Shown here: positions 25,820-64,000 of the stretch, one piece after another | Layout: every line of letters begins with the position of its first letter | Numbering within the stretch: position 1 is the stretch's first letter | DNA from: Leucoraja erinacea | Lineage: Eukaryota | DNA length: 64,000 nt | Assembly (NCBI RefSeq): GCF_028641065.1 | Contig: NC_073398.1 | Coordinates: 28,334,001 to 28,398,000 of the forward strand | Reading direction: 5' to 3' | Notes under the pieces: generated by a model | Databases searched by the model: none | What the model was told of the DNA's origin: nothing | The model's input: only the letters and a program-made list of their open reading frames with translations | Program-made: the position numbers and the translations under genes

Positions 25820-25868
25820 ATGGAGACATCATTTTACATTATCCTACAGCTGTTAATACCTTTTGCAG
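25820..25868 (+). CDS. VJ-C1 inhibitory IgSF receptor, exon 1 (signal peptide)
   Basis: ATG in a good Kozak context (GACATGG), METSFYIILQLLIPFA, phase-1 donor G|GTATGA typical of IgSF leader exons. Confidence 0.75.
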
Positions 25869-27207
25869 GTATGAGACCCAAGTGTAATACTTTATACAGA
25901 ATTTGATTTCACCAAGCAAATGGAGATTGCTGATGTTGGAACCTAGAATTGAAAAAAGAGTACTGAAAGAACTTGGTGATCAAGGCAAAAAGTGTAAGTC
26001 ATTATTTCATGATGAAATTCTAAATCAGTCCTGATCAGGGGCTCGAACCAAAACATTGACCTACACTTTTTCATAGTCATACGGCGTGGAAACAGGCCCT
26101 TTGGCCCAATTTGCTCACGCTGACTGCATTTGTCCCAACTACCTGCATTTGGCCCATATATTCTTCTAAACCTATCCTATTCACGTACCTGTCCAAATGT
26201 TATTTTTTAATATTGTGAAAGTACCATTTTTTTTGCCTTCACAAATGCTGTTTGATCCACTGATTTCTTCCAACGTTGTGTTCTTTAATTTTATCAAATT
26301 TGGATAGGCATTAAGTTCATATTATATGTTGTCAATTGCATGGAATGTAACAGTCAAAGTGAATGATAGCAAAATTGATGTGATTCTACTTTTGTTAGTG
26401 CATTTTGTGTTGAATTTACTTGATGAAATTGAAATGGGTTAGCAACACTGAATGTTTGCTATTACTTTATTTTCAAACCATCTTGAACATTCACAATTGT
26501 GTTTTTTTATTTTCCTAAGTTGAAATGACTAATATATATTGACACTTTTAAATTTCATGATATAGCATGCCACAGCCATTTGAGCTTTTAAACTTAAAGA
26601 GCATTAATTTAAACTTTCCAAAACTTTCATTGTAATTCAGAAATGTGGTATTCCATGTAAGCCTATGATCCCCTGGTGTTGAGACCCTTTGTGCATTTAT
26701 CCTTTGTATACCTCATTGTTCTTATGTTGCTTGTTTTGTTCATTTGTTTCAATCTGGTGATATTTTGTTAAAATACCATAATAGTCTCAGTTCATAAAAT
26801 GGCTACAGCTGGCATTATTTTCCATTCCATGCCTTATTGTGTTGTTACATGGTACCTAATGGATTTATTTTGGGAAGTATTGTTCTTGCAGCAGAGATAG
26901 AATATATCTTGAAAGCAATTCTGTTCTATGGTATTTGAATGTTTAAAATTCCTCTGTTTACATTTTTAAAACATGCAGGAGCAGTGTTAAAATTGTACTC
27001 CAAATACAGCTGCAAATGTACTAATATGAAGTGTTAAGCTATGAAGTTTCTCTACAAACAAAGAAATGTAATGTGTTGACCACTCATATGGCAATCGCAG
27101 AGGAGGTTCAAACAAGCACAGTTACATTTATTACAATTATTACCGCGGGGAAGATTAACTTTGAAATACGGCATTTTAATTACATTTTCTGAATCTCTTT
27201 TTCTCAG

Positions 27208-27567
27208 CTGTACACAAGACAAATAATGATTTACAACAACCTGATACCCTTACCATCGCAAAAGGACATTCGATCTCATTACATTGTTCCTATTCCATGC
27301 ATTATCTATCAAGATTTACAGTAAAGTGGTTTTTATGCAATGATAGCCCATATTCTTCAACGATAATCGCAAACCTATCTACCGATAAACCTTGGGTTTC
27401 TCATTCTCGATATTGCGTAAGGCATAATTCTACATTGAAGGCATTCATCTTAACAATTATCGATGTTCAAGTCAGTGACAATGGAATCTACTGCTGTGAG
27501 GTGATTCGGTTGGCACCACCGCCAACTTTAACAGGCAATGGAAATGGCACCCTACTGAATGTAACTG
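27208..27567 (+). CDS. VJ-C1 receptor, exon 2: VJ-type IgV domain
   Basis: LQQPDTLTIAKGHSISLHCSYS...VKWF...LTIIDVQVSDNGIYCCEVIRLAPPPTLTGNGNGTLLNVT: canonical C, W, DxGxYxC and a J-like GxG G-strand. 360 nt, phase 1/1. Confidence 0.92.
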
Positions 27568-28376
27568 GTAATTATTTTTTTAATTCTTTAAAAAGTGTTT
27601 TGGCAGTTTTACTTGGAACATTAATGCAAACTTTTGCAGCAATTAACTTTGTACAGTTGTGTCAGTTATATGAGAGATGTGTCAGATATGATCATCGCAC
27701 GGCAGTGAGTTAGCTCTAAATCAGCATGCTGGCTGAAGTTCTTAATTTGTCCTTAGTGGTCTGGAATAGGAAGGTTTAGGACACATATTTTTGGCAGGTT
27801 GGACCTGCTTTTGAGATAACAAATAAAAACAGGAAACACTGGATATAATGGAACAGGCAGAGCCTGCAGAAAAGGAAACAGAATAAATATTTCATATCTT
27901 TCTCCTTTTGTCAGAACAAGGAAATATTTGAAATTACTTTTTGTGTCTGTTTGTGTGAAAATTGAAGGTAGCATGATTTATCAATTTCAATGATAACTAT
28001 CTATACTTCCAAATGATATTTATCTTATTAAGGACTTTATTTTATTCATAGCTTTCACTGTTGTGAGAAATAAAGGAAGTTTAACTTAATTTTCATCAAA
28101 AGGCACAAATATAGGACTAACATCAGTCATGCTTGTTCTTACAGCAGTAGAGTGGTCTGAATTAGACATGAGGCCAAATGGACAGTGTAGTTGTGCTTGA
28201 TTTAGATTGACAGTGAGATCATTTCAAGTTAATTTATCAGCAAAGAGAGGAAGCACAGTAGAATCGGGCATAGTCAAGGCTTATAGCCAAATCAGACCAG
28301 AATCCTAATTTATGATGCTGTTATACTAGAGACAGGAATTTAATTGACATAATGAACACATCATGGTTACAAAATA

Positions 28377-28550
28377 GACACAAAAAGCTGGAGTAACTCA
28401 GCAGGACAGGCAGCATCTTTGGCGCGAAGGAATGGGTGATGTTTCGGGACAAGACCCTACTTCTTGACCCGAAATGTCACACATTCCTTCTCTATAGAGA
28501 AACTGCCTGTCCCGCTGAGTTACTCCAGTTTTTTATGTTTATCTTCGGTT
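28377..28550. repeat. Palindromic Penelope-pLTR-derived repeat
   Basis: GCTGGAGTAACTCAGC...GCTGAGTTACTCCAG inverted arms. Similar fold-backs occur at about 40760-40920, 45975-46110 and 62913-63100. Confidence 0.75.
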
Positions 28551-29759
28551 TAAACCAGCATCTGTAGTTCTTTAACAGAATGGTAACAAAATATTTTGCT
28601 TTAAATTTACAGCACAGCGGAGACCTTTTGTCCTTTGTATAAAAGCTATGTTTTATTCGTGCTGTACATTTTGCACATACCATCATGGTTGACAAGTATC
28701 GGATTTTGTTGCATTTTGCTACCGAATGTATAAATTGTGTCAATATTTAATTGGTACTTTATTGTCTCAATTATGGTATGTGCTTAATGGTCAATTCTCT
28801 ACTGCTTATGGATCAGCTTTGAAGAAACAGAAGAGAAAATAGAATCTTTATGAATGTCAATTTTCCTGATTAAGATCTACAAAAATCCAACTGGCTCATT
28901 TATGACAAGAAAAAATGAAAGTAGATTTGCATCTATTGAAGGCTGCAGCAAACACATCTACCTTGAAGATAAACAAATAAGTAACTTTAATTCAGTTCTT
29001 CTCTGATTAACCATTAGAATGGATTGAAAATGATAACTAGACTGTTGTATTAAATGACACTCTTATGTGGAGTGAGGAAGCATTTAGGATTTGGTTGTTG
29101 GTTGTAGTATTGTGTGAGAACATAGTGGTTAACTTCAATTGACATCGATGGAAGAGGAAATTTGAAAAGGCTGATACAACCAAAGCAAGAGGCCAAGAAT
29201 GATCGTGGAACAGCATAGTCAACATGATCAAGACCCACAGTCAGAGAAGGCCAATTAAAATAAGTGAATGAGTAAAACAAAAAAGAAGCACATTACTATA
29301 CACATATGTCTGAAGAAGGGTCTCGACCTGAAACGTCATCCATTCTTTCTCTTCAGAGATGCTGCCTGTCCCGCTGAGTTACTCCAACATTTTGTGTCTA
29401 CATAGTATTCGAGTTAGGTTGGAAATGCGTGAAAGTGGCTAGTTATATGTCTGTCCTTACAGGATTGGAACAATAGTGGGAATAGGATGGTTGGGATGGG
29501 GATGAATGCTTTAGAATGAGGAAATAAGAGCAAAACATTTTGTATAATTATAGAGCTTCATATATATTTGTAGATTAAGCAAACAGAAAATATTCAGGTG
29601 TTCAGTTCTGCATAGAAAAATCATAACTGATTTCAAGAAATGTATATTTATAATTAGTACTGTTTATGTAATTAAATATGAACCTCAGTACCTTTGTAAT
29701 TTGGATACCTTTGAAGAATGATATGCCACTTCAGAATTATACCATTGCTAATCTAACGA

Positions 29760-30360
29760 AAGCATGATCATGTTTCACACCTTTTGGCCTCTCTCCACTG
29801 GCTGCCTATTCAGTATAGGATTCGTTTTAAAATTATTTTATTTACTTTTAAATCCCTAAGTGGTCTTGCCCCGTCCTACCTATCTGAGCTTCTTCACCCT
29901 TATTCGCCCTCCCGCTCTCTCAGGTCAGATGATCAGCTGCTCCTGATTGAGCCAAAGACTAAGCGGAAGCTCAGAGGGGACCGTGCCTTTGCTGTGTCGG
30001 CTCCGAGATTGTGGAATGAATTGCCTCTGCACGTTAAACAGGCCCCTTCTCTAGCTGTTTTTAAGTCACTCCTGAAGACATATCTGTTCTCCATGGCCTT
30101 TGTAGACCAGTGAGGTGTTAAATTGTTTATTAACTTTATTTGCTTGGTTTTGCTGCGTTGTTCGTACTCGTGTTTTATGTTTTTTAATTTATTGTTTGGA
30201 TTTTTGTATGTAATTTATGCGCCTCGTGTTAGTTGTATGTTCTGTTGTTCTGCCTGTTTTATGATGTCTTGCTTGTTTTCTTTTTTCTGTACAGCACTTT
30301 GGTCAGCTTTGGTTGTTTTTAAGGTGCTTAACAAATAAAGTTGTTATTATTATTATTATT
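29760..30360 (+). mobile_element. L2 LINE 3' end in intron 2 of the VJ-C1 receptor
   Basis: LASLHWLPIQYRIRFKI...GLAPSYLSELL...LRS.D...GDRAFAV.APRLWNELP...FKS.LKTYLF, then the 3' UTR TGTACAGCACTTTGG...AATAAAG and a (TTA)n tail. Confidence 0.93.
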
Positions 30361-30384
30361 AATCTATCTTTTTTTTATTACCAG

Positions 30385-30699
30385 CTTGTCCTTCTTTTCG
30401 GCTCATGGAATCTTACGACAAGATTTCTTCTTCACCATCAATTATCATTACATGCTTAGCATATGGGTTTTATCCAAATATTATTACATTTTGGATACAA
30501 CCAACCTGTCTCACCTACAGGCTCATCAGTACAAGCAACTCAACCAATCCCAATGGAACCTATAACTACAATGCAACGTTTAGCATCTCCACAGAAAATT
30601 GCTCCAACTCCACTGAATTCATGTGTGTAGTTCAACATCCAGCATCACAGACCGAGCTAAATGTTACTATCATCATAGATGTTCATACAGTTGCTCAAG
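30385..30699 (+). CDS. VJ-C1 receptor, exon 3: C1-set Ig domain
   Basis: ITCLAYGFYPNIITFW...NPNGTY...FMCVVQHPA shows the C1-set signatures CxxxGFYP, NxxGTY and FxCxVxH. 315 nt, phase 1/1. Confidence 0.92.
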
Positions 30700-32199
30700 G
30701 TAGGATGGTATCATAAAATTAATTCAGCAGGAAGGCCAACAAAGCCCCTGCTGGAATGTGTTGTAAAATAAATGCTTTACTAGATATAAAGAAAGTGTGA
30801 TAGAAATAAAGAAGGCCAAATTTACTTTTTTTAAATCAAATCAAACTCACTTTATAATATTACCTTATTAACAGGCACACCTTATTTTTCTGGCTAGCTA
30901 ATTGTTGTTTCCCACTTGAATTACTTCCTTGACATACAATCTCTGCTCTTCCTGATTTATGACACCCTCAAAGGAGGCACAGTTTTATTTCCTGATATCA
31001 ACAAAATGATATCAAGAAATAATGTTGTGCCTCCTTTGTGGAAATTAACAAAAATGTATAATTATGTGATTGTAATCAGAATAAGAGTTCACACGCTAGA
31101 TTCCTGGTGAAGAACCATGCATACTGGGGAAAGAAATGTTTAAAGCAAAGCCGCCAGACTTCTGGAGTTTAACATTCAATTCTGGAAATTAACAGGTTAA
31201 CATTCCGGCTGCTGCAAGCTGAAGAATTAAGAGAAAGCTTATCAGTGCTCTCTATCCGATGTAGAATTCTTAACCCAAAAACCTTCATTACGATAAACTA
31301 CATGTAAACACTGTGACTGCGAAATACTGCCATGAGTGTCCTTTGTTTAGGTAGGATCTGATGCCCTGTGTGAGCTGCTTTGCCTGTGGCTGCTTAGGGC
31401 TCCATGCCAACAAATTTATACATGTTGGGTTCCTTTCAGGCCAGAGCTGGAAATAGTCATGTTATTTCCTGATTTGCCGTCCACTTTTATTGAAGGGAAG
31501 TCACCGTTGCCTTCCAGCAGATCACATATTTGTTCTTGCTAGAGACAAGCAAGTGGATTGAGCACACACATTTGGAATGGTTGTTGTCTTCTCAATGCTG
31601 CTGAATGTCATTGACGCACCCATGCTGCATTGCAGGATTCACATATCAACACAGGGATGTACCACAACTGGTATAAAATTTATTCCCTTAATAGCCAGTG
31701 CATGCACAAGCATACCCAGTATTCTGGCAGCAGTATAAACACCTATATTCTTTGGTGATGCACTGTGTTTCAGTGCTTGAGCATCAGCAATAAACATAAA
31801 ATTGGCAAGTGGAAACAAGGACATTAAGCTGAACATATGATGCCGCAACACATGGATAGTATGCATATTATGAATATCATGCCGGCATATACAGTCTGAT
31901 GGAAAAGACAGTCATAGCATCACATGGCCACCAATGGATTCGGGGATGACAAGGCCCTTCATTTCTGCCATATAGGTAGCTCCTCACTTACCAGAACCTT
32001 CTCAAATGGCTCAATCATACCATATTAGCAGAATTTTTGTGATAAACTAGATTAAGTGGGACCCGTTGGCTCCCTGTCACACGGATGCAACCGGTTCCCC
32101 AACACAATAGTCCACTCACCCGTTCCCCCAATGCAACCTGTCCCCCCAACTCAATATTGCACCACTCATGCATAGCCCTCAACTGCGCAGGCACGGCTC

Positions 32200-32660
32200 A
32201 TTTCCCCTCATCCCCCAGCACTCCCTCCCCCTCTTCACCCTCCCTCTTCTTTCCTTTCTCCTCCCCAATCCCTCCCTCACCTCTCCCTCCATCTACTTTC
32301 CCCTACCCTCAGTCACTCCCTCCCTCCACAACTCCTCTCCCCTCCCTACCCCCCTCCTATCCCTCTATCCCCCACTCCTCACCTCCCCTATTCCCCCCAC
32401 TATCCTTCCTGACCTCCCCCACTGTCCTCGTCTGCCTCTATTCCCCACTCCCTGCCTCTCCCCCCCCCCTCATCTCCCTCTATTCCCCCCCTCTCCTTAC
32501 CTCCCCCACTTTCCCCCTCTCCCTCACTACCCTTTCCTCTCCCTCAATCCCCCCACTCTCCCTCCTCATCTCCCCAGGATCTTTCCCCTCTCCTCCTCCC
32601 CTCCCCAATCCCTCCCTCTCCTTTCCCTTACCCTCAGTCACTCCCTCGCTCCATCCATAA
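32200..32660 (+). repeat. Polypyrimidine (C/T-rich) low-complexity tract
   Basis: About 460 nt of CCCT/CTCC/CCCA runs. Confidence 0.9.
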
Positions 32661-34049
32661 AGAGCAGCATCTACAGTTCTCTCCTCCACAGGTCATCCAT
32701 TGTTAGATGTGGTTTAGATCCAGTTGACATGACGATTGGACCAGTTTGCATCGTGTGTGTGAGTTACTCAAACTCCGCGCAAACTGCTCAGCCACTCTGC
32801 AACCCGACTCTAGTAGAAGCAATGTGACACACCACTCTGAGAGCTCAGGAAATTTCCTTTCTACTTTCAGCTTAATTCACTTGGCAACATTCTAATTCAA
32901 GTCTGAAGTTTAAACTCCATTAATGGCATATAAACATTATCCCGGAAAACATTCCATCCATACATGATCTGGTGTACATCATGCTGTTGTTTTCCAGACA
33001 TTGTTGAGTATGAATCAGCCACGATATTTACCTTTGTTACAATTCAAGACATTTATTTTAGTTTTTGTTTAGTTTATTATCACATTTACAGAAAAACATT
33101 TGTTGCGTGCTATTCAGTCAGCAGAAAGACAATACATTATTACATTCGAGCCATTTACAGTGTATAGATAGATATATGATAAGAGAATAATGTTTAGTGC
33201 AAGGTAAAGCCACCAATACCCGTTCAAGGATAGTCTGAGAGTCATCGAAGAGGTGTATATCTATATATATATATAGATATACACTTATTCTAATTACGTT
33301 AAACTTTTTTATTAGAAATTTTTTATTAGAAATTTTAATTAGAAATTACATATATATATAGATATAATTTCTAATTAAAAAGTAAAACATGTCATTAGAA
33401 TAAGGATCCAAAAGCTGGGTTTGATTCTAAACTAAATTGAGGAATTACAAAACTTTGTCACTTTACATGACCTAAAAATTGTGCAAACATTTTCCACACA
33501 CATTTCCATTTCCTCTATTCATAAAAAAACATGTTTTGTGGTTTTTGGTGTTGTGCTATTTCTAAAGGTCAGCAAATAGATCTTTTAGTTCAGTTTATGT
33601 ATGACCAGGTCTAATCCAGTCAAATAACTTTGTGCATTGTTATTTTTAAAGAAAATGAAAAGCATAAACCCCGATCTGGAAGGTGAATATACTGATGAAA
33701 TAATTCAAATATGTTAAAGCATTTAAAAATAAATTAACTAAGAATTAGTGAAATCAAATAACTTTATGTAATCAAAATTAAAGATATCACTATAAAATAA
33801 TTTCATAAACTAACAGCAAGAAAGAAAAGGACTTAAATGAACATAACAATTGAAAATAGTTATAGAAAATGGAAAACCTGAGCACAACATTTGAATGGAG
33901 AGGTGGATTGATTTTTAAATGTGGTGGAAGTTATAAATAAAAAGCCTTCAAATGTTTGGTCCCAAGTTCAGATCAGATTAGTTTATTATCATCTCCAAGA
34001 GGGTGGTCCTTGTTTATTGTTCATATGAAGCTCACAGTGTATCAGTAAA

Positions 34050-35010
34050 CATACACTAATGATAAATACAACAATATGACGACGAGAGTAAAACAGCAGA
34101 ATTGTACACGATTGTCATGCAAAATCCATGTAATGTAAAAGAATATTAAAATACAAAAATAGAATAATCAATGAGATAGAGCATCTCTGGAAATGGGGTG
34201 TAAAAGAGATGATTGTTTCAGGAGTCAGTTAGCAATGGGGAAAGTGGCTCTTAATTCTGGACATCTGGGCTTTCACGCTCCTGTATCCTCTCACAGAAGG
34301 TAGAAGGGGGAAAAAGGAATGGCCGGGACAGCAGGTACACTTGACAATACTTCCAGCCTACCTGATGCAATGCACCATGAGGGTGGACTGTATGGAAGGA
34401 AGAGACAAGCCTGTGATGGACTGGAGATACAGGTAAACAAAATAACCATTGCAGGTCAGGGTGAGTGAGTCTGAAGAAGGGTCCCGATCTGAAACAGAGC
34501 CTACCCATCTTCTCCAAAGATGCTGCCTGACCTGCTGAGTTACAGTACTCCAGCATTTTGTGTCCTGTGATGGACTGTTTTGTGTTCAGTACTCTCTGCA
34601 GGTTCAGATGGTCAAGAACAGAGCAGATCCCATACCATTCTGAGATGCACCCTTCACAATGCATCCGGTAGTGCATCTATAGAAGTTTAAGAAAATCCTC
34701 ATGAAAAAGACATGTTGAATCTTCTCAGGCACATAAGAGAGTAAATGTATTGATGAGCTTTCCTGATCACTGCATTAGTGTCAAAGGACCAGGTTAGGTT
34801 GTTGCTGATACAGATACAAAGAAACATTAAGCTGTCGACCGTCTTCACAGCCGCTCAGTTAATGAGGACAGGGTTGGGTTCATCCCCTCGCCAGCCCTAT
34901 TTCCTTAGGTCAACGATCAACTTTGGTAACAGTCCTGGGACTAGATAATGGAATCGCCAAATGAGGAAGAGTTAAGAACCTCTGTGAAGGTTTTGTGTAG
35001 GTGGTGCTCA
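34050..35010 (-). mobile_element. Degraded Rex1-like LINE
   Basis: GCISEWYG.CS..D...LQRV on the minus strand. Confidence 0.6.
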
Positions 35011-36064
35011 TCTCCGCTGCACAACCTCAACCATAAATAGACTTACCCTGAAACTGTAACTTGTCATCAGCGATAGAGATATTTTGGGAGAGCTGTTTTC
35101 AGAAAGATGATTTCCGCAATCTTTCAGAGAACCATTCAGATCCACGTCTTTGTCAGATGGACTTTGCTTTTTACAAAACTGTACGCCCTTGCTTTGCTGA
35201 ATGAGGTAATCTGCTAACCCATTCTTGTTAATGTTATATTATAAAGCAGAAAAGATCAATCATTAACATGCCATCCTGATCATTGCCAGTTGGACCGTGA
35301 AAGCTCAGACATAAGGACTTAATAACAACAACTTTCCCATTGCTATCCAACTCCTGAACTAATCATCTCATTTCACACCCCTTTCCCCAGAGGTGCTGCC
35401 ATGTAATCTTATTCTTAACTCTATCTCACTCGGTTTTCCACTTTTACACTTTTTTGTACTATTTTCTGATTGTACTATAATCTTTACACCATTCTCATGT
35501 TTTGCATTTGCCACTGCATTTATTGTTCATGTATTTATTGTTTACTCTATGAGCTTCATGCAAACTAAGAATTTCAGTGTCCTGCTGGAGTCTATAACAA
35601 TAATCTAATCTGTATTTTCATTATTTTGAACAACAAATGAAGCCTCACTCTTTGAGAACTTTTCCCAGGATCTTCATTGGCTTTTCAGGCCCAATGGGTT
35701 TTTACAAGTTGAAATCAAACTCCAGTTTTTATCAAATTCAAATGGGGTGAAATGGCATTATTAACTGGCCAAGCCAAAATATTCTGATTGATAACTTAAA
35801 TTATATTTGTACAGAACTTTGTACATTTATACAAAAGGAAAACGGCTTTGAGACGACGCAAACTATAAATTATTATTAATACTGCAATTATACTTTGGTA
35901 ATGATTAATTGGAAGAGAAAAGAAAGTGTAAAGTGCAGGGAAATTAATAGTTGTAAAAAGTTTCTATAAATAAAATGATTAAATGTATTGAACTTGAAAT
36001 CGTTCTGGAGAGTTGTTTAAATCGACCATGCATAACGTGATTTAACAATTCCAATTTTCCACAG

Positions 36065-36163
36065 ATCATAAATGGAGTACCTGGATTTCCATTTTACTTT
36101 CCATAAGTGGAGGAACAGCTTGCCTTTTCCCTCTTGTGCTCTTCCTTATAAAATGTGCATGCA
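36065..36163 (+). CDS. VJ-C1 receptor, exon 4: transmembrane
   Basis: DHKWSTWISILLSISGGTACLFPLVLFLIKCAC. 99 nt, phase 1/1, CAG acceptor and GTAAGT donor. Confidence 0.85.
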
Positions 36164-36635: not shown

Positions 36636-36706
36636 AAAGGAAAGGAATGCAAGAGCAAACAAGAATTCAAAGTAATCGAACTTTGAACCTTGAATGGAAT
36701 AACATG
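36636..36706 (+). CDS. VJ-C1 receptor, exon 5: cytoplasmic
   Basis: KRKGMQEQTRIQSNRTLNLEWNNM, starting with a basic stop-transfer cluster. Phase 1 to 0. Confidence 0.78.
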
Positions 36707-37704: not shown

Positions 37705-37848
37705 AATGAAACCAATGAGGAAGAGATCTGCTATGCCAAACTGCAATGGGCAATGACACGGAGAGCTAGAAAGGAGGAGGAGGAGGAGGAGACTGTGTAC
37801 AGCCCGGTTCTTCAGTGGAAGACTAATGGAGAGGGCAGCTGCAAATAA
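37705..37848 (+). CDS. VJ-C1 receptor, exon 7: ITIM + ITSM, stop
   Basis: NETNEEEICYAKLQW...EEEEEETVYSPVLQW...CK*. ICYAKL fits ITIM and TVYSPV fits ITSM. TAA at 37846-37848. Confidence 0.85.
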   Translation, partial: NETNEEEICYAKLQWAMTRRARKEEEEEETVYSPVLQWKTNGEGSCK

Positions 37849-44290: not shown

Positions 44291-46459
44291 AAACTTACGA
44301 ACTTCTAAATGGTTGTACGGCAACCTTTCTACCCTTGCAAAGCGAATGAAAACTAGTATCCAACGTGCTTGCTGGACAATTTTTCTAGTTATTCGACTTG
44401 AAGAAGGGTCCTGACCAGAGTGTGGTCTTTCCACATTCTCCAGAGATGCTGTCTGAGCCGCGGAATTACTCCAGCACTTTGTGTCACAACGTTTACAGTT
44501 CCTTGTGTCTATAATGTATCTACTTGTGTTGTTACAGTTGGGGATCCTTTATATTGGAAATGGCAAAGTCCACGTTTATGGCTACACACCTGGCTCGATT
44601 GTGCTCCACGGAAACTGCCCGAACAGTGAACTGTCTCAATGAGACCGAGTTAAGAACTTAGTGCACCATTGTCGGGGCAAGGTGCAGCGTGTGATCCGAG
44701 TGCCCGGAAAAAGGCTGCCTCGACCGTTGCAGAAATTGTCTATGAGACGCATTTTATGAAATTTGGCGGATCAGGACTTTTGAAACTCGTCCAAGAAAAA
44801 CAAGTGGGCGTGTCGCATATTTGGCGCTGTGTGCAAAGATCCTATAGCTGTTTGTTTCCTGGTTTCCTTTATTAACTTTGCACCACGTCCCGCTGCGAAA
44901 ATGAATCCTGTAGAGATGACCGCGATTTTTCAATATGAGGGTTTTAGTGTCCTGACAACCCAAAAGGAGAGGGGACAAATGCAACCCGAATAATGAGTGA
45001 GTGTGTTTCGGTTGACGTGGCATGAAACTGGTAGTTCGCTGCAAAGATCTATAAAATCTTTGGTTCGCTATTGGTTTCATATTCACGGCTCGAACATTCA
45101 AGGTTCAAGGGCGAGGAGGGTGAGCGGTGACGGATCAAAGGGGGGAGCGGGGCGAGGGGACGAGGGGCAAGGGTTTGGGGAGGAAGAGTTGCGCGGGACG
45201 GGCGGCAATGGGCAGGGAGGGAAAGGGGACGGGACAGCGGGGACTGTGCATGGAGAGGGGGTGGTACATGGGGAGAAGGACAGAGGGGAGGATGAGGAGC
45301 GAGTGGGGAAAGAGGGACGCGATGAAACTATATAGTAATATGCAACAGATTCCACAGACTGGTGTTTAGCGAGGCCGTGTTGTTTACCAGAACACTTTAC
45401 AAACTGCGCGACCCGATGAGTTGCTCCGGAAGTTTGTGTATTTTGCTTTGTAAAAACAGCATCTGCAGTTCCTTGTGTCAACAACTGTGCTGCTGCCGTT
45501 GGGTGATTGTGAAATGTGACCTCTAGATCCCTTTGTTTCTCAGTATTGGCTGTACCACCATTTACAGCATAGGGCATTGTCTGATACGTCCTCACAAAAC
45601 TTATCAACTAATATGGCGAATACAAATAAACATGTTTAATCCTCTCTTGCGACCTCGGGCTCCACACACGGTTGAGTCCTGCTCTTCCCCGCAACTTTCT
45701 ATAGGCGGGGCAGCAAAATGTCTGACTGTAAACAAGTTGTTTTCTGTCCGGACACAATAAACTTTACCGCAATGAGAGCGAGTTAACGACTTAGTACAGT
45801 GTTCGGGGATTGGTACAGCGTGTGTGACCCAATGATCCGCACTATGATCCGCCGACCACTGCATACATTTGTATACGAGTCGCATTTTATAAAAAAAGTT
45901 TGAGTGTTAGGCCGTTTGAAACTTGTCAGACAAGAAAAGCAAGAAAAGACAAGGAACTGCAGATGCCAGAGAAAGATACACGTAGTTTTGGAGTAACTCA
46001 GCGGGTCATGCAGCATTTCTGGAGAACATGGATAAACGAATCTTAAGAAGGGTCCCGAAACAAAACGTCGACCATCTATGTTCTCCAGAGAAGCTGCCTG
46101 ACCCCAGCCTTTTGTTCATTTATAACACTAATAAACAGGTGGAGTCGTTGAGGGTCTTTCGGTTTCGTTTCCGCACAGCCCCCTGCCGGGAATGACGGAT
46201 GTGGCCGAACTGAAGACGGTACCAGGCTCCGGACAACCCAAAGGGAGAGGATAAATGCGATCCAAATACTTTGTGAGTTTGTGTTTGGATAGTTCGCTGT
46301 TGGGTTCACCTTCGCATTCGCGCCCCGAACATTTCAAGTTCAAGGGCGAGGGAGGGCGGAGGGGGTAAAGCAAGAGAGGGACGTGGACGTGAGTGGGGGG
46401 GGGGGGGGGGGGAGGGAAGTAAAGGAGGTGAGCGGTGGGGGAGGGAGGGGGAAACCCGG

Positions 46460-50210: not shown

Positions 50211-50520
50211 GTATTGGCTCATGCAAGTCATTGAGTATTGACATGCACTGAAGCACATGAGATCATCGGTCTTAGGATCACAATCCACAGGTCAAGGGTC
50301 CAGTGTTAGCCCAGCCGTGTCAACAGCAGTGCCCTCTGACAATAAAGGTCAACCCTGTGACCCTGGAGGATGTGGACCATTTATTATTTATTTGGAGCCG
50401 TCTTCTGATGAAATTTTGTATCAACTTGGTTTGTTATCCATCGCTCCCGAGGCACTGTTCCTGAAGATTTGGAGAAGATGCTTAAAAAAATAACTTGTTC
50501 TATTTTTAATCTTCAAGGCA

Positions 50521-50575
50521 ATGGATTGTACGTTGAGAAAGATGCTGTTGTCATTGCTGCTGTTCCCTAGCTTGG
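50521..50575 (+). CDS. IgV-TM-NACHT-LRR receptor, signal-peptide exon
   Basis: MDCTLRKMLLSLLLFPSL with phase-1 donor G|GTGAGT. An AG acceptor at 50516-50517 implies an upstream non-coding exon. Confidence 0.8.
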
Positions 50576-51274: not shown

Positions 51275-51622
51275 CTGAAGGATCTTTCTCTCGATCCTTT
51301 GGGATGTTGAATAGAGACATCCTGTTGCCCTGCGCCTTCCATGCTTCATCTAATTTCAATCTGAAAAATCTCATCATCACATGGCAGCGGACAGGCAGTC
51401 TCGCCGTGGTTTACAGTTTCTATTCTGGAACAATCCATCCGGAGCATCAGGACAAAGCATTCCTGGACCGCACTCAACTATTTCTCTCCGAATTCACCAA
51501 AGGGAATGCGAGCCTGAAATTGGAAAGAATGTTGTTATCTGATGTGGGAAACTACAGTTGTTTTGTAACTGTAGATGATGGAATGCCACACATTGAGAAC
51601 GTGGTGGAACTAAAATTAAATG
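51275..51622 (+). CDS. IgV-TM-NACHT-LRR receptor, B7/butyrophilin-family IgV exon
   Basis: DILLPCAF...LIITWQR...VVYSFYSG...QDKAFLDRTQLFLSEFTKGNASLKL...DVGNYSCFV carries B7-H3/B7-H4/HHLA2/BTN-type motifs. 348 nt, phase 1/1. Confidence 0.93.
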
Positions 51623-53613: not shown

Positions 53614-53763
53614 ATATATCGGAGAATAATACATCCGGTGGCACCGATCCAGCTTCAGAAAGGAAAAAGCTTGTACTCGTACTTCCAGCGCTACTCATTT
53701 TAATTGCAGTTGGAATTTTGCATTGGCAAATGAAAAACAAGAAGAAACCAGATATTGAAGAGA
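53614..53763 (+). CDS. IgV-TM-NACHT-LRR receptor, stalk + transmembrane exon
   Basis: DISENNTSGGTDPASERKK-LVLVLPALLILIAVGILHW-QMKNKKKPDIEE. 150 nt, phase 1/1, A|GTGAGT donor. Confidence 0.88.
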
Positions 53764-53875
53764 GTGAGTAAAATGTTTAGGATTTTGGCCATTAATCACA
53801 CAAACTGAATACCTATTCGAGAATGTGTTCAGAACACTGCATTGGGAATGGATTTCTAGGCACTTTCAGCCATAG

Positions 53876-54088
53876 TGTGGCGGCTCCTAAGGGTCGTCCC
53901 ATTATACTGCCGAACCCCTCGGCACAGGAGTGGTGCAGTCCGGAGGCGGTCCTTAGCCGGAGGGTATAAAAGGCAGGGTTTGGGTGCCATCTTTGCCTGG
54001 TTTCGTCTTCCCCTGAACCGGGAGGAAATAAAGTATAGTGCTTCTCAAACTGCGGACTACTTGTCTCATTTGAGACCCACGCACTACA
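53876..54088 (+). repeat. 5' LTR
   Basis: TGTGG...CTACA, with TATAAA at about 53965 and AATAAA at about 54027. Identical by eye to the 3' LTR. Confidence 0.95.
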
Positions 54089-54089
54089 T

Positions 54090-54104
54090 TGGTGACCCCC
54101 GACG
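54090..54104 (+). promoter_or_regulatory. Primer-binding site, tRNA-Trp type
   Basis: TGGTGACCCCCGACG just after the 5' LTR matches the complement of the tRNA-Trp 3' end (TGGTGACCCCGACG) with one extra C. Confidence 0.85.
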
Positions 54105-54117
54105 CTCCATTGGCATC

Positions 54118-55071
54118 ATGATGGAGACCGAACAAAGCCCTACCTCCTCACACGCCAGCCCGACCCTATCTCTGGACGCGGTCTCCGTGAAACTGCCCAG
54201 CTTCTGGACCACACGGCCGCTCATCTGGTTCCAGCAGGCGGAGGCCCAGTTCAACCTGCGGGGCATCACGGTCGATGCCACCCGCTTCTATTACCTGGTG
54301 GGGGCCCTCGACCAGGATGCGGTGGAAGAAGTATCGGACTTCCTCGCAGCCCCCCCGGACAATGATAAATATCTCGGCCTGAAACAGCTCCTGCTCCAAA
54401 TTTACGGACTAAGTAGGATGGAGCGGGCAGGTAGGATCCTGCATATGGGGGGCCTGGGCGACCGGCGGCCATCTACCCTCCTAAAGGAAATGGTGGCGTT
54501 ATTAGACGGGCACACGCCGTGCCTGTTGTTTGAGTACACTTACCTGCATCTGCTGCCGGCCTACATTCGATTGCAGCTCACCGACGCCTCGTTTGCTGAT
54601 CTTCGGGCCCTCGGGAGGCGCGCCGACGCCATGTGGTTGGCGCGCCCTGATGACGTCAGCGCGCTGGGCGTCAGCAGAGACGAGGTCGCGCTCAGGTCGA
54701 CGCGCCCGGATGACGTCAACGCGCTGGACGTCGGCAGGCACGCCGGTGACGTCAACGCGCTGGCCGTCGGCAGGCACACCGATGACGTCAGCCCAGCAGC
54801 TCCCGATTTCCTCCGGTGGGGCGGGGGAGCTGTGGAAGGAGTGACAGCTCCAGCCCGACGGCCCGCTCGATTACCCCCAGCGGCAGTGAGGGGTACTGCA
54901 CCTGCAGTCCAGCGCCAGCAAGCTGCAGGCACCACCAGCAGGAGCAGGCAAGCTCCAAATAACACAAACAGAAGGTGCTGGTGCTATTTCCATCAGCGCT
55001 GGGGTGCTGCAGCACGACAATGCCGCCAGCCGTGCACGTTTCCGGGAAACGCCTGGGCCGGCTGCCAATAG
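54118..55071 (+). CDS. gag: Gypsy Gag
   Basis: VSVKLPSFW...WFQQAEAQF and a C-terminal CYFHQRWGAAARQCRQPC (Cx2Hx9Cx3C). Slippery GGGAAAC at 55044-55050 before the stop. Confidence 0.9.
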   Translation: MMETEQSPTSSHASPTLSLDAVSVKLPSFWTTRPLIWFQQAEAQFNLRGITVDATRFYYLVGALDQDAVEEVSDFLAAPPDNDKYLGLKQLLLQIYGLSRMERAGRILHMGGLGDRRPSTLLKEMVALLDGHTPCLLFEYTYLHLLPAYIRLQLTDASFADLRALGRRADAMWLARPDDVSALGVSRDEVALRSTRPDDVNALDVGRHAGDVNALAVGRHTDDVSPAAPDFLRWGGGAVEGVTAPARRPARLPPAAVRGTAPAVQRQQAAGTTSRSRQAPNNTNRRCWCYFHQRWGAAARQCRQPCTFPGNAWAGCQ

Positions 55072-58000
55072 TCCCCGCGGTGGCCGGCCAAATTCACCGC
55101 CTTTTCGCTTGGGATCGGCGCTCCGGGACTCGTGGATACAGGTGCGGAGCTCAGCGTCCTGCCCCCTTCGCTGGCCGACATTCGTTCCGGTAAGCGGGGG
55201 CCCGTCCTCACCGCGCCGAACGGCAGCCCCATCCGCACATATGGACTGCGCATGGTTCCCATCGTGCTCGGCTCCTGCCATTTTTCATGGAACTTTACCG
55301 TTGCCGACGTCTCCCAACCATTGCTCGGGGCCGATTTTCTCCGGACGCATTCCCTCATGGTGGACGTCGGGCGTCAGCGTTTGGTCAACGCCACTACAAT
55401 GGAGCCGATCACGTTGCGCTTGGGTCAACCGGTGGGACGGCCACTGGCGTCCGTGGACTCCCGATACGCACAAATCTTGGCTGCGTTCCCGGACATTCTC
55501 ACTCCGCAGTTTCATTCGGCAACCCCCAGCCACGGAGTTGTACATTATATCCCGACTACCGGCCCACCCCTCCATGCACGAGCACGTCGACTGCCACCAG
55601 ATAAACTGCGTCTGGCACGGCGGGAATTCCGCACGATGGAGGCCTTGGGGATCGTCCGCCCTTCGAGCAGCCCTTGGGCGTCCCCACTCCACATGGTCCC
55701 TAAGTCAAGTGGGGGCTGGCGACCTTGTGGGGATTACCGACGGCTGAACGCTGCAACAACAGCGGATCGATACCCCGTACCCCACATCCAGGACTTCACG
55801 GCCCATTTGGCTGGGGCCACATTTTTTTCGAAAGTGGATCTGATGCGGGGTTATAACCAGATCCCGGTTCACCCGGATGACGTACCCAAGACGGCTATCA
55901 TCACGCCATTCGGGCTTTACGAGTTTACTCGGATGCCGTTCGGCCTCAAGAACGCTGCACAGGCCTTTCAGCGCCTCATGGACGGGGTTTGTCGTGACCT
56001 CGAATTCGTATTCGTGTACCTGGACGACATCCTGGTGGCCAGCCGCTCGCAGCAGGAACACTGCGCTCACCTTCGACAGCTCTGTCAGCGGCTCAGCGAG
56101 CATGGTTTGGCCATCAACCTGGACAAGTGCCGTTTTGGGGTCAACGAAATTGACTTTCTCGGCCACCGCGTGACTGCGCAGGGCGCGGTTCCCCTACCTG
56201 ACAGGGTTGACGCCGTCCGTCGGTTTCCCCGCCCACGCACGGTGCGTGGCCTGCAGGAATTTGTCGGCATGGTGGCATTCTACCATCGTTTCGTGCCATC
56301 CGCGGCCCACATCATGCGGCCCCTGTATCAACTTCTGGCGGGTGGGCAGCAGAAGAGCGTTGAGTGGACCCACGAGGCGGAGGCAGCTTTCGACGGCGCG
56401 AAGGAGGCCCTTGCTCGGGCCGTGCTGCTGGTGCACCCGCGGGAAGATGCCCCGACTGCTCTCACTGTGGATGCCTCGGAGTCGGCAGTTGGTGCTGTAC
56501 TGGAGCAGCTGACGGGCGGAGTTTGGCGGCCTCTGGCCTTCTTCAGTCGGCACCTCAACCGCGCGCAGACCAAGTACAGTGCGTTCGATCGTGAGCTCCT
56601 GGCTCTGTACCTGGCTGTGCGCCATTTTCGTTACTTCCTGGAGGGCCGCCCGTTCACCGCCTACACCGACCATAAGCCGCTCACTTTCGCCCTGCAGAAG
56701 GTTTCCGACCCCTGGTCCGCACGTCAGCAGCGGCAGTTGGCTTACATCTCCGAGTACACCACAGCCATCCGCTACGTCAAGGGGAAAGAGAACCGGGTGG
56801 CCGACGCATTGTCCCGCCCTGCTATAAATGCCGTGTTCGAGGTGGCGCCCGGATTGGACTATTCTGCTCTGGCGGCGGCACAGCTCACGGACGACGAGGT
56901 ACCCACCTACCGGACTGCCATCTCCGGACTCCGTCTTGAGGATGTCCCTCTCGGTCCTGGGGGTATGACAATCCTGTGCGATGTGTCGTCCGGTCAGCCG
57001 CGCCCCATCGTCCCTGCCACCTGGCGCCGGAGAGTGTTCGAGGTCATCCACGGACTGGCTCACCCATCAATCCGGGCGACAACGGCACTGGTGGCAGCTC
57101 GCTTCATGTGGCACGGTCTGCGCAAGCAAGTTGCCCATTGGGCTCGCACCTGCATCCCGTGCCAGACAGCAAAGATCCAGCGCCATGTCCGCGCACCTCT
57201 CCAGGAGTTCGGTCTACCTCACCGGCGGTTCGACCATCTCCACGTGGACATTGTGGGGCCCCTTCCACCGTCCCGGGGCATCACCCACCTTTTGACCATG
57301 GTGGACCGCTTCACGCGGTGGCCGGAGGCCATTCCGTTGGCTGACACCTCATCGGCTACGTGTGCTCGTGCGTTGTCCGCGCACTGGATTGCTCGCTTCG
57401 GGGTGCCGGCGCACATCTCCTCCGACCGGGGGCCACAGTTCACCTCCGAGCTGTGGTCAGCCATGGCTCGCTTGCTGGGGGTGCAGCTGCACCACACCAC
57501 GGCTGACCACCCCCGCAGGCTAACGGTCTGGTGGAGAGGTTCCACCGGCAGCTGAAGGCGGCATTGAAGGCACGGCTCACCGGCCCGGACTGGATGGACG
57601 AGTTGCCGTGGGTCATGCTGGGCATCCGGACCGCTCCCAAAGAGGACTTGGCCTCATCATCGGCGGAGCTGGTTTACGGGTCGACACTCACAGTGCCCGG
57701 GGAGTTCGTGCCGTCGGCGCCGGAGCAGCAGGAAACGCCCTCCTCCACCCTTCAACGCCTTCGTGAGCGAGTTGGCAGGCTCGCACCCGTCCCGACATCC
57801 CGCCATGGGTCATTTCGCCCACACGTGCCAATGGCCCTCACGGACTGCCCATACGTCTTCCTGCGCCGTGATGCCCACCGGACGCCACTTCAGAGGCCGT
57901 ACGAGGGCCCGTTCCGGGTGCTGGAACACGGGCAGTCGACTTTTGTCCTGGACATGGGGGGCCGGCCGGAGGCCGTGTCGATTGCCCGTTTAAAGCCGGC

Positions 58001-58200
58001 GCACCTGGACATTGACCAGCCGGTGCTGGTTGCTCAACCTCGGCCCCGAGGGCGTCCCCCCTCACGACTCCCTCCACCTGTCACTCCACCTGTCCCTCCA
58101 CCTACCTACGCCCCCGCAAGCCCCGGGATCTGCTGTCTTCCGCACGCGGGCCGGCCGGGTCGTGCGCCCGCCGGTGCGTTTTGTGCCTCTGGTTCTGGGG
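55044..58200 (+). pseudogene. pol: Gypsy Pol (protease, RT, RNase H, integrase) with frameshifts
   Basis: DTGA protease, YLDD RT, DAS/ELLA/TDH RNase H, HHCC, DDE and GPF integrase motifs. Frame breaks near 55130 and 57510. Confidence 0.9.
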
Positions 58201-58208
58201 GGGGGTCC

Positions 58209-58421
58209 TGTGGCGGCTCCTAAGGGTCGTCCCATTATACTGCCGAACCCCTCGGCACAGGAGTGGTGCAGTCCGGAGGCGGTCCTTAGCCGGAGGGTAT
58301 AAAAGGCAGGGTTTGGGTGCCATCTTTGCCTGGTTTCGTCTTCCCCTGAACCGGGAGGAAATAAAGTATAGTGCTTCTCAAACTGCGGACTACTTGTCTC
58401 ATTTGAGACCCACGCACTACA
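58209..58421 (+). repeat. 3' LTR
   Basis: Copy of 53876-54088, followed by the TSD ATAG. Confidence 0.95.
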
Positions 58422-58487: not shown

Positions 58488-58517
58488 TGATTCATTTACT
58501 GGAAGACAATATAAAAG
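58488..58517 (+). CDS. IgV-TM-NACHT-LRR receptor, 30-nt cytoplasmic micro-exon
   Basis: Strong acceptor TTCTATTTCTTTTTAG and donor AAG|GTAAAG. Phase 1/1, encodes MIHLLEDNIK. Confidence 0.7.
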
Positions 58518-60187: not shown

Positions 60188-61892
60188 ATGCCATTCTGAA
60201 TTATAAAGAGTACATCTTGAAAGATAAAATGCATTTATGTTGTTCATTAACACAACGGCGATTCGAAAACTATCCGCTTGCCAGAACCATCAATATTACC
60301 AACCCGAAGGAACAAGACCTAGATGGTGATCTTATCAGGAGCGATGACTCAAATATTGCACAAGAAGTACAAATTTCACAACTGCTGTCATTGCTTCGGG
60401 AAGAAAACTTCTCAAAGCGAGTCCTGCTGGTAGGTGATGCAGGAGTAGGGAAGAGTTGGACTGTTGTCAGCATGGAGCAAGAGTGGGCATCTCAACCAAC
60501 CCACCCCTTGAGGTGCGTCTTTGTTCTCAGATTCCGTGACTTGAATGAGGTTAAAGGAAAGACATCTCTCCGGGATCTGCTGAAGAAGCATTGCACACCT
60601 TTGTCATCAGTCCTAACAGAACTCCTCTCGAACCCTCAAGATGTGTTGATCATTTTGGACGGGCTGGATGAATTCGCCCATCAGTTGCAATGGAATCCAT
60701 CAGGTTGTGATTTCAACCTGGATAGTGAGGCTGAAGTAGGTGTTCTTGTTTCCAAACTAATATCCAAGAACCTCCTTCGAGAAGCCCAGGTGTTGGTTAC
60801 CTCCCGGTGGAATACCAAGCAGATAGAATTTAACAAGAAGTACTTTGATCAGCTTTTTGTTATCTCTGGCTTTACCAATGATCAGCTGAAAAGATATTGC
60901 GAGGTGTTTTGTGGAGAGAAGCAAAAGGCGGAAGAAATGTTTCAACGCATTACAGAGAATGCAACCATCAAATGTCTGGCTTCCAATCCCCTCAACAGCT
61001 TCATTCTGTGCAATATTTTGGACAAGTGTACCAGCTCTCAAGCAAATGTACCAGTGACAAATAGCAAAGTGTTTACATTGTTGCTGTACAGTCTGTGTAA
61101 CTGCAGCACGAGTAAAGAAACAGACGCTGAGAATAAGAGTGAAGAGGAGAAGCAATTGTTTAAAGACACCATCCTGAAACTGGGAGAACTATCCTTCAAC
61201 TCTCTGCTATCAGGGAAACTTAAAATAAATGTGACTGATCTGAAGACCTATGGAATAGATCCAGACATCCTTTCAAAATATCTCTCAAATCTTGTGCTGG
61301 ACTGTAAATGCCAAGGAGTCTTTGAGTTCCACCATGCAGTGCTGAAGGAACAATTTGCAGCTTTGTATTGTGCTACTTTACTCAACAATGAAGCTGAAGA
61401 GTTGGTCAAGTGTCTGGATCTGTGGTGCTTTGGGAAAATGCCACTAAATCAAATGAGCCAATTTTATTTGCAATCTTTTCAACCTGACCACACAGAGAAA
61501 CTGTACAATTTTCTGAGGTTTCTCACTGGCTTCTTAACCGCAGGAAGAGATGGCAAGTTGTGGAACTATACAACTCCTCTCCCTCCTTCTACAGCCATAG
61601 CTCTCACAACATGGTTCAAAAACAGCTTTCAGCGAGACATTAAGAAGGCAGAATTGCTGAATTTGATGCACTGTCTCTTTGAACTGAATGATGCCACTGT
61701 AACGGCAGAAGTATCTCCTTGCATCCGAGATGTGGGTTTTCACAACGTTTCTCTGAGCCCGCTCGATCTGCGTGCTTTGTGCTACTGTCTCAATCATTCC
61801 ACCGTGGAGGAGATGGATTTGAGGCACTGTAGCATTGGTGATAAAGGAATAAAGCAGCTCCAAGAAATACTAGTCAAGTGCAGAACTCTTTT
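60188..61892 (+). CDS. NLR (NLRC3-like) NACHT exon with HD1/WH/HD2 and first LRRs
   Basis: Walker A GDAGVGKS (60433-60456), Walker B LIILDGLDE (60646-60672), sensor-1 VLVTSR, FEFHHAVLKEQFAALY, FLRFLTG, LNLMHCLFEL, then MDLRHCSIGDKGIKQL. Acceptor TTTTCTTCAG (phase 1), donor TT|GTGAGT (phase 2). Confidence 0.96.
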
Positions 61893-63795
61893 GTGAGTAA
61901 TGATTTTCAAAAGAATATTAAGCTCCAGTTGCACTAATCTACCTTCTTGCATGCACAATGTTTGTTGACATGTTTTATACTTTTGTCACATTTTATGCCC
62001 TACATGTCCTGATTTATTCTAGCCCAGCTAATATTTGTGCCTGAAAGTTGTAATGAAATATATACAAATGGAGATACTACTCTTCAAGACTAGAATGGAA
62101 ACAATGTGTGCAATTATCTCCCTCAACTACATTGTTCTATGGTAACCCCACCCTCCTCCAATGTTGCCCTGTGGAGCTGCGATGAATCACAGAGCTGCAT
62201 TGTAATAACCACAAGGGCAGAGATTTAATTCTATGCATTCATTCTAGTTGTTGCTCTTATGAACACACTTGCATTGATCACTATAAAAAGACTTGGGGGC
62301 GGTTTGCTTTATCTGCAAATACACCTGTTGGGGGTTTGACCTTTCTGTAAATCTTGCCCCACCCCATTTCCAACGCAGCAGTGTCAATGGACAGGTATTC
62401 ATAAATCTAGAGGAACAGCATCTCCTATCTCACCTGGGTGGTCTACAACCTAATGGTATGAACATCAAATTCATGTAACCCCTCTGTCTATTTGTTGTCT
62501 CATGATACACCTAGATTATCTGTATGTCACTGTATGTCATGTTGTTACTTGTGGGTGGAGCACCTAGGCTAATTCCTTGTATGTGAATACTTGGCCAATA
62601 AACTTACTAACTTACTTACTTGTCTCATATGCCCCTTCTTTTCAAACCCAACCCCTCTTTCAGTTTCTGTAATCACCCTACCCCATCCCAAATGATTCCA
62701 TCTGTGTATCACTTGCACATTACACCCACTTGATTTCCCAATTCCCTCCACTGTTCCCCTTTTGCCCACTATCCCACCCTAATGTGGTTCCACTCACCAT
62801 TATCCTTTCTTATCAGATTCTATAATCTACCCATGTACCCATGTACCCATTATCACCTCCTCAGCTTCAGGTTCATCTCAGCATTCCTCATCTGGGCCCA
62901 CCTATTACTTAAGGACACAAAGTGCTGGGGCAACTCAGCGGGTCAGGCATCATCTTTGGAGAACACGGATCACTGACGTTTCAGTTCGGGACCCCACTAC
63001 AGACTGATCATTAGTTTGAAGAAGAATCCTGATATGAAACATAATCTATTACGTTCTCCAGAGATGCTGCCTGGCCTGCTGAGTTACTACAGCATTTTGT
63101 GTTCTTTTGTGTAAATCGGCATCTACAGTTCCTTGTTTCCTCTTTTACTGTACCACTCTACTGCTTTTTTTTAAATTGCTGCTTTTTTCCCTTTTTCCTT
63201 CCGCCCACAATATCTAAAAGAATATGTGATTCTGTTCCATTCTGTTTGTAGTTTGTTTGTTTGTTTGTCTTTTTGCACAAAGTCCGCGAGCATTGCCACT
63301 TTCCATTTCACTGCACATCTCGTATGTGTATGTGACGAATAAACTTGACTTGACTTGACTTTATGCTCTAAATCCTCGACCGCAAACATCGACTGTCTGT
63401 CTGCCGCCACCGATGCTGCTTAACCCGCTGAGTTCCTCCACTAGTTCGTTTTTGCTCCAGATTCCTGCGTTTGCTGTCTCTTGTATATCCAAATATCCAA
63501 ACATTGATTATTATCAACAAGGTTGAATTGATTTTGTGTATTAGAAAGTGCTCAAGCAGAAACAAAGGATCTCTTAAACTATGTAATTACCTGAAGTCAT
63601 TTTAAGCCCCATTTGCACTATCGTTCAAAAATCATTGCCCAGACACATGTGTTAGACCAAGGTTAGACTCTGCTCTCCCAGCAGTGCCACAATTGTTTAT
63701 TTTGCAGCTACCTTTGCAGGCAGCAGTTTGTGAGGATTGTGTTCTGTCCCCAGGCACTCGGGTCTCTAATTGTTTTCAACGTCTTGTGTTTCCAG

Positions 63796-63882
63796 GGTAA
63801 GCTCCAACAAACTGACTGTAAAGTCAGCAAAGAGTTTGAATGCCGTCCTTGAAGACCCAAAGTGCAGGATTGAGACATTATC
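63796..63882 (+). CDS. NLR single-repeat LRR exon
   Basis: 87 nt, phase 2/2, (L)VSSNKLTVKSAKSLNAVLEDPKCRIETL, a ribonuclease-inhibitor-type LRR. Confidence 0.88.
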
Positions 63883-63977
63883 GTGAGATTTTTCATCACA
63901 TAAATCCTCTTGTAAAATTCTCCAAGTTTCTATAGAGCTTCTAATCGCTGACATTTGCCATTTGGTTCCGTTTTCAG

Positions 63978-64000
63978 GTGTGGTACAAACTCTTTTGGTT
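63978..64000 (+). CDS. Start of the next LRR exon, truncated by the window
   Basis: TTTTCAG acceptor after a 95-nt intron. Phase 2 gives (S)CGTNSFG, fitting the LRR xxxNxxG register. Confidence 0.7.

Follow-up and report, generated by a model that had tools for sequence, protein, structure and literature searches.

A 64,000-nucleotide stretch of the 2.19-Gb genome of the skate Leucoraja erinacea (G000:C22:28334001-28398000; here called the window) carries two neighboring immune genes, for which models were built from sequence. Gene 1 encodes an immunoglobulin (Ig) receptor with a PPP loop and two cytoplasmic tyrosine motifs, and gene 2 encodes a B7-like IgV domain followed by a transmembrane (TM) helix and the NACHT and LRR domains of an NLR. 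The two genes are likely an old linked pair, receptor and ligand. We give a probability of about 0.45 to the reading that they form a linked checkpoint acting in trans, with the NLR controlling display of the ligand from the inside out. In such a checkpoint, the PPP loop of gene 1 would engage gene 2's B7-like IgV displayed by a facing cell (the binding is predicted by modeling, and the trans geometry is our supposition); the two tyrosine motifs would bring in SHP phosphatases, restraining the leukocyte, as expected from the biology of ITIMs (immunoreceptor tyrosine-based inhibitory motifs); and the NACHT-LRR part would likely set the clustering or surface retention of the IgV. Inside-out control is suggested because the IgV and TM helix fill the N-terminal effector slot that is normally clustered by NLR oligomerization; for gene 2, we infer the direction of signaling from domain position only. 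The support tallied for this reading comprises the isolation of the Ig exons in 363 kb, linkage proxies, a passing complex model, conservation of the gene 2 interface, retention of the PPP loop, a second neighborhood on contig C13, and the expression pattern.

Both genes are intact and lie on the plus strand, co-oriented as the earlier note on this DNA had described, with canonical GT-AG introns and zero internal stops. Gene 1 has six exons (25820-37848) encoding 345 amino acids (aa) in the order leader-V-C1-TM-tail. Exon 1 (25820..25868) ends in a phase 1 GT donor, and its leader matches those of the ray and shark orthologs P0048, P0050, and P0065; the leader MLEPRIEK (P0044/P0040) was ruled out as the main start, since the exon at 25820 fits the ortholog leaders. 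Exon 2 (27208..27567; Pfam V-set, E value of 9.6e-15) encodes a VJ-type V domain with the PPP loop and GxG. Its predicted fold (predicted local distance difference test [pLDDT] score of 91.7) is nearest to T-cell receptor (TCR) V domains, with CTLA-4 and PD-1 within the pack. The loop at the position of complementarity-determining region 3 (CDR3) is LAPPP, and the end of the domain reads YxCx6-PPP-x5-GxG (PPP and then GNG). The C1 domain is encoded by exon 3 (30385..30699; Pfam C1-set, E value of 4e-7), the TM segment by exon 4 (36065..36163; hydropathy peak of 2.17 at residue 251), and cytoplasmic sequence by exon 5 (36636..36706), which has AG/GT ends, is in frame, and aligns with orthologs. 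Exon 6 (37705..37848) contains the sequence motifs ICYAKL, an ITIM, and TVYSPV, an ITSM (immunoreceptor tyrosine-based switch motif) or ITIM, followed by the stop. Gene 1 is single copy, the next genome match being 33% identical, and it is transcribed, given that Logan contigs of 1,354 nt encode a spliced V-C1-TM protein (P0040).

Orthologs of gene 1 occur in skates, rays, and sharks and keep the V plus C1 layout; relatives occur in gar, coelacanth, newt, axolotl, frogs, and sea turtles. Of the 21 listed family members having the loop, 20 retain PPP, and 14 of 22 carry a pair of tyrosine motifs (the remainder are mostly truncated models). The distal motif, TVYSPV in the skate tail, takes the form of an ITSM in just 3 of the 14 two-motif members and elsewhere is mostly an ITIM. 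A distinctive C1 signature, in which the C-strand Trp is absent and an extra Cys pair is present, was seen in all 17 orthologs tested and in 14 of 150 search matches.

The CD28 family has been defined by a single extracellular IgV in a V-TM-tail layout and has nine members (Quiniou 2024; accessible part of PMC11599192). Gene 1 has the CDR3 proline motif of this family, with GxG, and its cytoplasmic tyrosine motifs (an ITIM plus an ITSM or ITIM). Its V domain resembles those of CD28, CTLA-4, ICOS, PD-1, and CD28H in the PPP loop, the GxG, and the CD28X pattern YxCx6PPPx5GxG, and its two-motif inhibitory tail resembles those of PD-1 and CD28HL3 (PMC11599192, same part). Gene 1 also contains a C1 domain beside the V domain, departing from the single-IgV definition, and its synteny, with an acyl-CoA thioesterase gene as neighbor, is that of none of the nine members; the gene 1 accession, the gene 1 loop, and the term "tspan33" are absent from the accessible PMC11599192 supplements. 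In sequence searches, the V domain matched CTLA-4 best (E value of 2e-6), with TCR V domains about equal, and among solved structures the family profile matched UrIg2 and SIRPalpha best. A V-domain tree of the relatives had 2 of 18 branches starred and was not used. The earlier label of PPP-loop inhibitory receptor holds for the loop and the tyrosine motifs, but gene 1 is not one of the nine published members of the CD28 family. It may work like a CD28-family inhibitory receptor but, judged by its sequence, appears better filed with the non-rearranging VJ-C1 receptors, a group described in the accessible parts of PMC10751288 and PMC12227049. It shares germline-joined VJ plus C1 with the PRARP, UrIg, and NKp30 group and appears to differ in its C1 signature and PPP loop. 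The ITIM pair is like that of SIRPalpha in the SIRPalpha-CD47 system, and a partner with one IgV and broad expression would be the counterpart of CD47. The closest skate relative of the gene 1 V domain (G000:C25:23000506-23000835) has an SPP loop and GxG; a motif search of the accessible PMC11599192 supplements gave no match to it, and from its sequence it could be an undescribed family member.

Gene 2 has nine exons running from 46255 to 65541, the end lying outside the window, and encodes 982 aa in the order leader-IgV-TM-NACHT-HD1-WHD-HD2-LRRs-helical C-terminal domain (Pfam matches: V-set, NACHT, NLRC4_HD2, NOD2_WH, and LRR_6). The coding part of exon 1 (46255..46272; GT donor) supplies the first six residues of P0001/P0061, and exon 2 (50518..50575) is the leader exon of the gene model. 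Exon 3 (51275..51622) encodes the B7-like IgV, which matches B7-H3 and B7-H4 single domains (E values of 2e-14 to 3e-14), and is covered by contigs of RNA runs X1 and X2. Exon 4 (53614..53763) encodes a stalk, the TM helix (hydropathy of 2.64; modeled helix at residues 165-181), and a basic stop-transfer; exon 5 (58488..58517) is a 30-nt micro-exon found in P0001, with which orthologs align; and exon 6 (60188..61892; Pfam NACHT, E value of 1.2e-26) encodes NACHT-HD1-WHD-HD2, with intact Walker A and B motifs, and the first LRRs. Exons 7 (63796..63882) and 8 (63978..64145; the window stops at 64000) encode LRRs, and their joints, 61892-63796 and 63882-63978, are both present in runs X24, X1, and X2. 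The last exon of the gene model lies beyond the window (window-equivalent 65157-65541). The IgV is predicted to face outward, with the NLR sensor inside the cell.

The product of the nine-exon model, which spans 19.3 kb of the genome, is identical to database protein P0061; compared with P0001, whose coding sequence lies on a Logan contig of 3,341 nt, it has 9 differences in 982 positions. This agreement shows that the join from IgV to NACHT, across a Gypsy element in intron 4, is real. Both the IgV and the NACHT are single copy here (next matches of 37 to 41% and 32 to 34%, respectively). A short NACHT-less splice form using an acceptor at 59232 is possible on paper and has zero support among the joints listed. 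In the TM exon, a 3-base insertion at 53694 in three of the four RNA runs is likely a length polymorphism. Database isoforms skip C1 and TM in gene 1 (P0042) and the TM exon or the last LRR exons in gene 2 (P0217/P0013 and P0214/P0009), hinting at soluble or truncated forms.

The gene 2 IgV is of B7 type and is related, in order, to B7-H3, B7-H4, and then butyrophilin, MOG, and PD-L1. The B7-like IgV-NLR of the earlier note is borne out in its IgV and NACHT-LRR parts, but the nearest relatives of the IgV are not CD80 and CD86, the ligands of the MYPPPY loop. In place of the IgV-IgC, short-tailed B7 layout, gene 2 has no IgC and a tail of ~800 aa that contains the NACHT-LRR. On the NLR side, it has a NACHT with Walker A and B motifs, HD1-WHD-HD2, and LRRs, with a fold nearest that of NOD2. 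It departs from cytosolic NLRs with an N-terminal effector in that leader-IgV-TM replaces a death-fold or BIR domain; a domain search gave no match to CARD or PYD. Walker A (GKS) is intact in 19 of 19 gene 2 orthologs and Walker B (DGLD[ED]) in 18 of 19, and besides rays and sharks, a newt and a caecilian have the same architecture. In a quick tree that carried long-branch warnings, the NACHTs of this type and coelacanth fragments formed one clade (Shimodaira-Hasegawa approximate likelihood ratio test [SH-aLRT] value of 100) whose sister group was NLRs with a CARD-like N terminus; the IgV and TM of gene 2 sit in the slot that the CARD-like domain occupies in those NLRs.

The closest described protein is AjNLRC4 of the sea cucumber Apostichopus japonicus, in which, as in gene 2, Ig lies outside, followed by TM and then NACHT inside (accessible parts of PMC8699970 and PMC13133943). 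AjNLRC4 differs in its two Ig domains and two TM segments and in lacking an LRR (PMC8699970, same part), whereas gene 2 combines LRRs with a single TM and a single B7-like IgV; unlike AjNLRC4, the gene 2 NACHT belongs to a vertebrate clade that is sister to CARD-type NLRs. In the accessible text of PMC8699970, AjNLRC4 binds microbes via its Ig domain, signals to actin via NACHT, and oligomerizes and internalizes upon ligand contact. A protein cluster search showed that echinoderm clusters combining V-set and NACHT exist. In the literature outside subscription papers, we found no published transmembrane NLR in vertebrates, only ones in echinoderms and other invertebrates, and the accessible passages on the whale shark mention no membrane NLR.

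The V domain of gene 1 and the IgV of gene 2 were modeled together without alignments, alongside three controls, none of them family matched. The pair scored 0.68, 0.67, and 0.68 (best control, 0.01), with 51 to 53 contacts, agreement between runs on at least 96% of contacts, and a partner pLDDT of 87. In eukaryotic benchmarks, 39 of 65 solved pairs attained the pass mark, as did 2 of 126 unrelated ones; the microbial figures were 51 of 78 for solved pairs and 2 of 108 for mismatched ones. The PPP loop is central in the model, where P98 to P100 of gene 1 contact T35, Q37, V44, S47, H54, and H57 of the IgV. The V-V modeling suggested in the earlier note was thus favorable, as a prediction of binding only, and we put the odds that the two domains bind at a little over even. 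Conservation was analyzed over 18 related rows, leaving out the three Amblyraja copies and with core positions listed by hand; it was 0.58 at the predicted gene 2 interface versus 0.38 at other surface positions (permutation P value of 0.004). Only 3 to 5 of the 19 residues of this interface are common to it and six other skate B7-like domains.

Linkage in other species was assessed with two proxies in place of coordinates, namely, a shared record length and the distance between RefSeq accessions; flanking genes were not compared as controls. RefSeq accession numbers generally follow gene order. Leucoraja records were excluded from the count, since they possibly represent this same genome. Ten other elasmobranchs are informative, having placed sequences for both genes; in all 10, the two orthologs share a record length, and in 7 of the 10 the accession distance is ≤13 (1 in Amblyraja and Mobula hypostoma, 2 in Hypanus and Chiloscyllium plagiosum, 5 in Hemitrygon, 6 in Mustelus, and 13 in Mobula birostris). 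In Stegostoma the record length is shared and the two accessions belong to different series; Rhincodon and Pristiophorus have both genes and are uninformative. The pair also shares a record length in coelacanth (160,164,119) and newt (2,146,314,909), the coelacanth gene 2 model being without the IgV. By proxy, then, linkage is retained in other elasmobranchs, the outcome that the earlier note had looked for in related species; non-exhaustive searches turned up no chimaera records of either gene.

In a pattern scan of 363 kb around the pair, the only Ig exons were the three of genes 1 and 2. Receptor and ligand genes also lie side by side in the NKR-P1/Clr and CD200/CD200R systems, which use other folds or families and, unlike gene 2, have no NLR ligand. 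Human CD28-family receptor genes and their ligand genes are on different chromosomes. As in the CD28/B7 systems, the partner of the PPP-loop gene carries a B7-type IgV; here, in contrast, the receptor has a C1 domain, the B7-like IgV is fused to an NLR, and the genes are linked. We found no published report of the pair in the literature outside subscription papers.

A second neighborhood resembles this one. G000:C13:5479500-5577600 contains an alternating series of four genes, two of B7 type (V-C-V-TM) and two V-C1-TM genes with an EIPPP loop, and in one set the receptor lies 5′ of the B7 gene, co-oriented and ~25 kb away, the same layout as in the window. Of seven other gene-1-like V matches, these two from C13 have a B7-like V match no more than 35 kb away; the chance of such proximity is ~0.9% for one of six clusters under a uniform model, which overstates significance as Ig genes cluster. 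EIP is the motif of CD28H, and human CD28H binds B7-H7/HHLA2 (accessible part of PMC11599192). Because IFT57, which marks the human HHLA2 site, sits on C2, the C13 V-C-V genes are HHLA2-like by architecture only. We regard this neighborhood as a candidate second linked receptor-ligand cassette.

Expression was examined in four RNA runs, X24, X1, X2, and X22, of which X1 and X2 were selected for containing gene 2 and X22 was read at ~1%. Gene 2 exons and LRR joints were found in three of the four (X24, X1, and X2) and barely in X22; the TM-to-NACHT joints were not among the run joints listed, beyond which there were 71 further joints. The V and last exons of gene 1 had zero depth in all four runs, a weak result given the gene 2-based choice of runs. 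A CpG-rich stretch at 44500-46500 (CpG observed/expected ratio of 0.75 to 0.92) contains gene 2 exon 1, and the pattern suits a broadly expressed ligand whose promoter is CpG rich, together with a restricted receptor.

Several observations weigh against the trans checkpoint. The complex pass may reflect memory or likeness, because like complexes are already solved: PD-1/PD-L1 entry 4zqk is matched by both V domains, and in method tests the pass mark was also reached by 7 of 44 blind neighbors and 10 of 12 close cousins. Conservation at the predicted gene 1 interface is borderline (0.33 versus 0.21; P value of 0.057), and the published CD28-family genes sit elsewhere in the skate genome. Accession distances are 368 in Heterodontus, 488 in Scyliorhinus canicula, and 21,627 in newt, and no gene 2 counterpart for the gar, frog, and turtle relatives of gene 1 was among the 39 matches listed, a non-exhaustive set. 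Gene order changes slowly in elasmobranchs, and the retained linkage may be background synteny. Co-duplication, raised in the earlier note, did not hold, since gene 2 duplicates without gene 1: Amblyraja has three gene 2 models (one on another chromosome) and Pristiophorus has two, versus one gene 1 each. The first canonical (B-strand) Cys of the IgV is lost in 4 of 19 gene 2 proteins (P0058, P0060, P0063, and P0215), which are all three Amblyraja copies and one Pristiophorus paralog. Independent duplication and Cys loss would suit passive neighbors, with gene 2 a stand-alone, outside-in membrane pattern or adhesion receptor like AjNLRC4, gene 1 binding another B7, and the linkage being ordinary gene order. 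We consider this a real possibility, which can point to the precedent of AjNLRC4, with its microbe-binding Ig and actin-directed NACHT (PMC8699970, in part), to 32 other B7-like V matches in the skate, and to the lack of co-expression of the two genes in the four runs. It leaves unexplained why 363 kb should contain just two Ig genes and these from complementary families, why the layout is repeated on C13, and why the gene 2 IgV has a conserved, ortholog-specific face.

Binding evidence from the complex model would serve equally for a bidirectional pair, in which receptor binding clusters gene 2, turns on its NACHT, and sends a reverse signal into the ligand-bearing cell, as the earlier note proposed. 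The Walker motifs are intact, AjNLRC4 oligomerizes and internalizes upon ligand contact (PMC8699970, in part), and the helical domain after the LRRs could dock an adaptor; however, with no CARD or PYD match and with IgV and TM replacing the CARD-like domain of sister NLRs in the effector slot, an output pathway is not evident, and we judge reverse signaling improbable. An integrated decoy or guard, whose IgV baits pathogen proteins aimed at B7 while the NLR reports the attack and gene 1 is an incidental or guarded partner, seems very improbable. Between close skates the IgV varies more than any other domain (90% identity to Amblyraja versus 95 to 99% for the NACHT parts; 3 differences from P0001 in 115 positions versus 4 in 599), but at depth it is conserved like the nucleotide-binding domain (40% versus 39 to 40% identity to amphibians), gene 2 is single copy here, and no pathogen ligand is known.

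If correct, the trans checkpoint would join cytosolic NLR sensing with B7/CD28-type checkpoint control, hitherto treated as separate, and would support B7 ligands and non-rearranging VJ-C1 receptors having started as linked cassettes. Gene 1 is a named candidate partner for an orphan B7-type domain, and gene 2 is a transmembrane NLR in vertebrates, a class that we found in print only for echinoderms and other invertebrates. A bolder version, which we hold to be unlikely, is that this was an ancestral jawed-vertebrate checkpoint wired to an NLR: the membrane NLR would signal "healthy self" with a B7-type flag, lymphocytes would be silenced by it through the linked PPP-loop receptor, and the flag would be withdrawn or reclustered when the NACHT-LRR senses cytosolic infection. 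The pair would then be a relic cassette, with a sister on C13, that extends from sharks to amphibians.

From the gene 1 stop to the ATG at 50521 is 12,672 bp, the ~12.7-kb spacing first reported, but the true intergenic gap is 8,406 bp, since gene 2 has an extra first exon at 46255-46272. That only repeats lie in between is plausible: none of 13 gap open reading frames of at least 100 aa matched Pfam, but repeats account for only 37% of the gap in a comparison against 474 kb of this genome's DNA. A gene of the acyl-CoA thioesterase/BAAT type lies upstream of gene 1, with exons at 575-11073 of the minus strand; downstream, exons at window-equivalent 100500-140000 resemble what we take, by sequence likeness, to be TSPAN33 and SMO. 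The Gypsy long terminal repeat retrotransposon in intron 4 of gene 2 (53875..58421, plus strand; Pfam reverse transcriptase, RNase H, and integrase) lies outside the protein and is young, with 213-bp identical terminal repeats and an apparent 4-bp target duplication. The first-exon region of gene 2 (46230-46360) has a diverged tandem copy ~1.3 kb upstream (44950-45120; 75 to 79% identity), which is possibly an alternative first exon.

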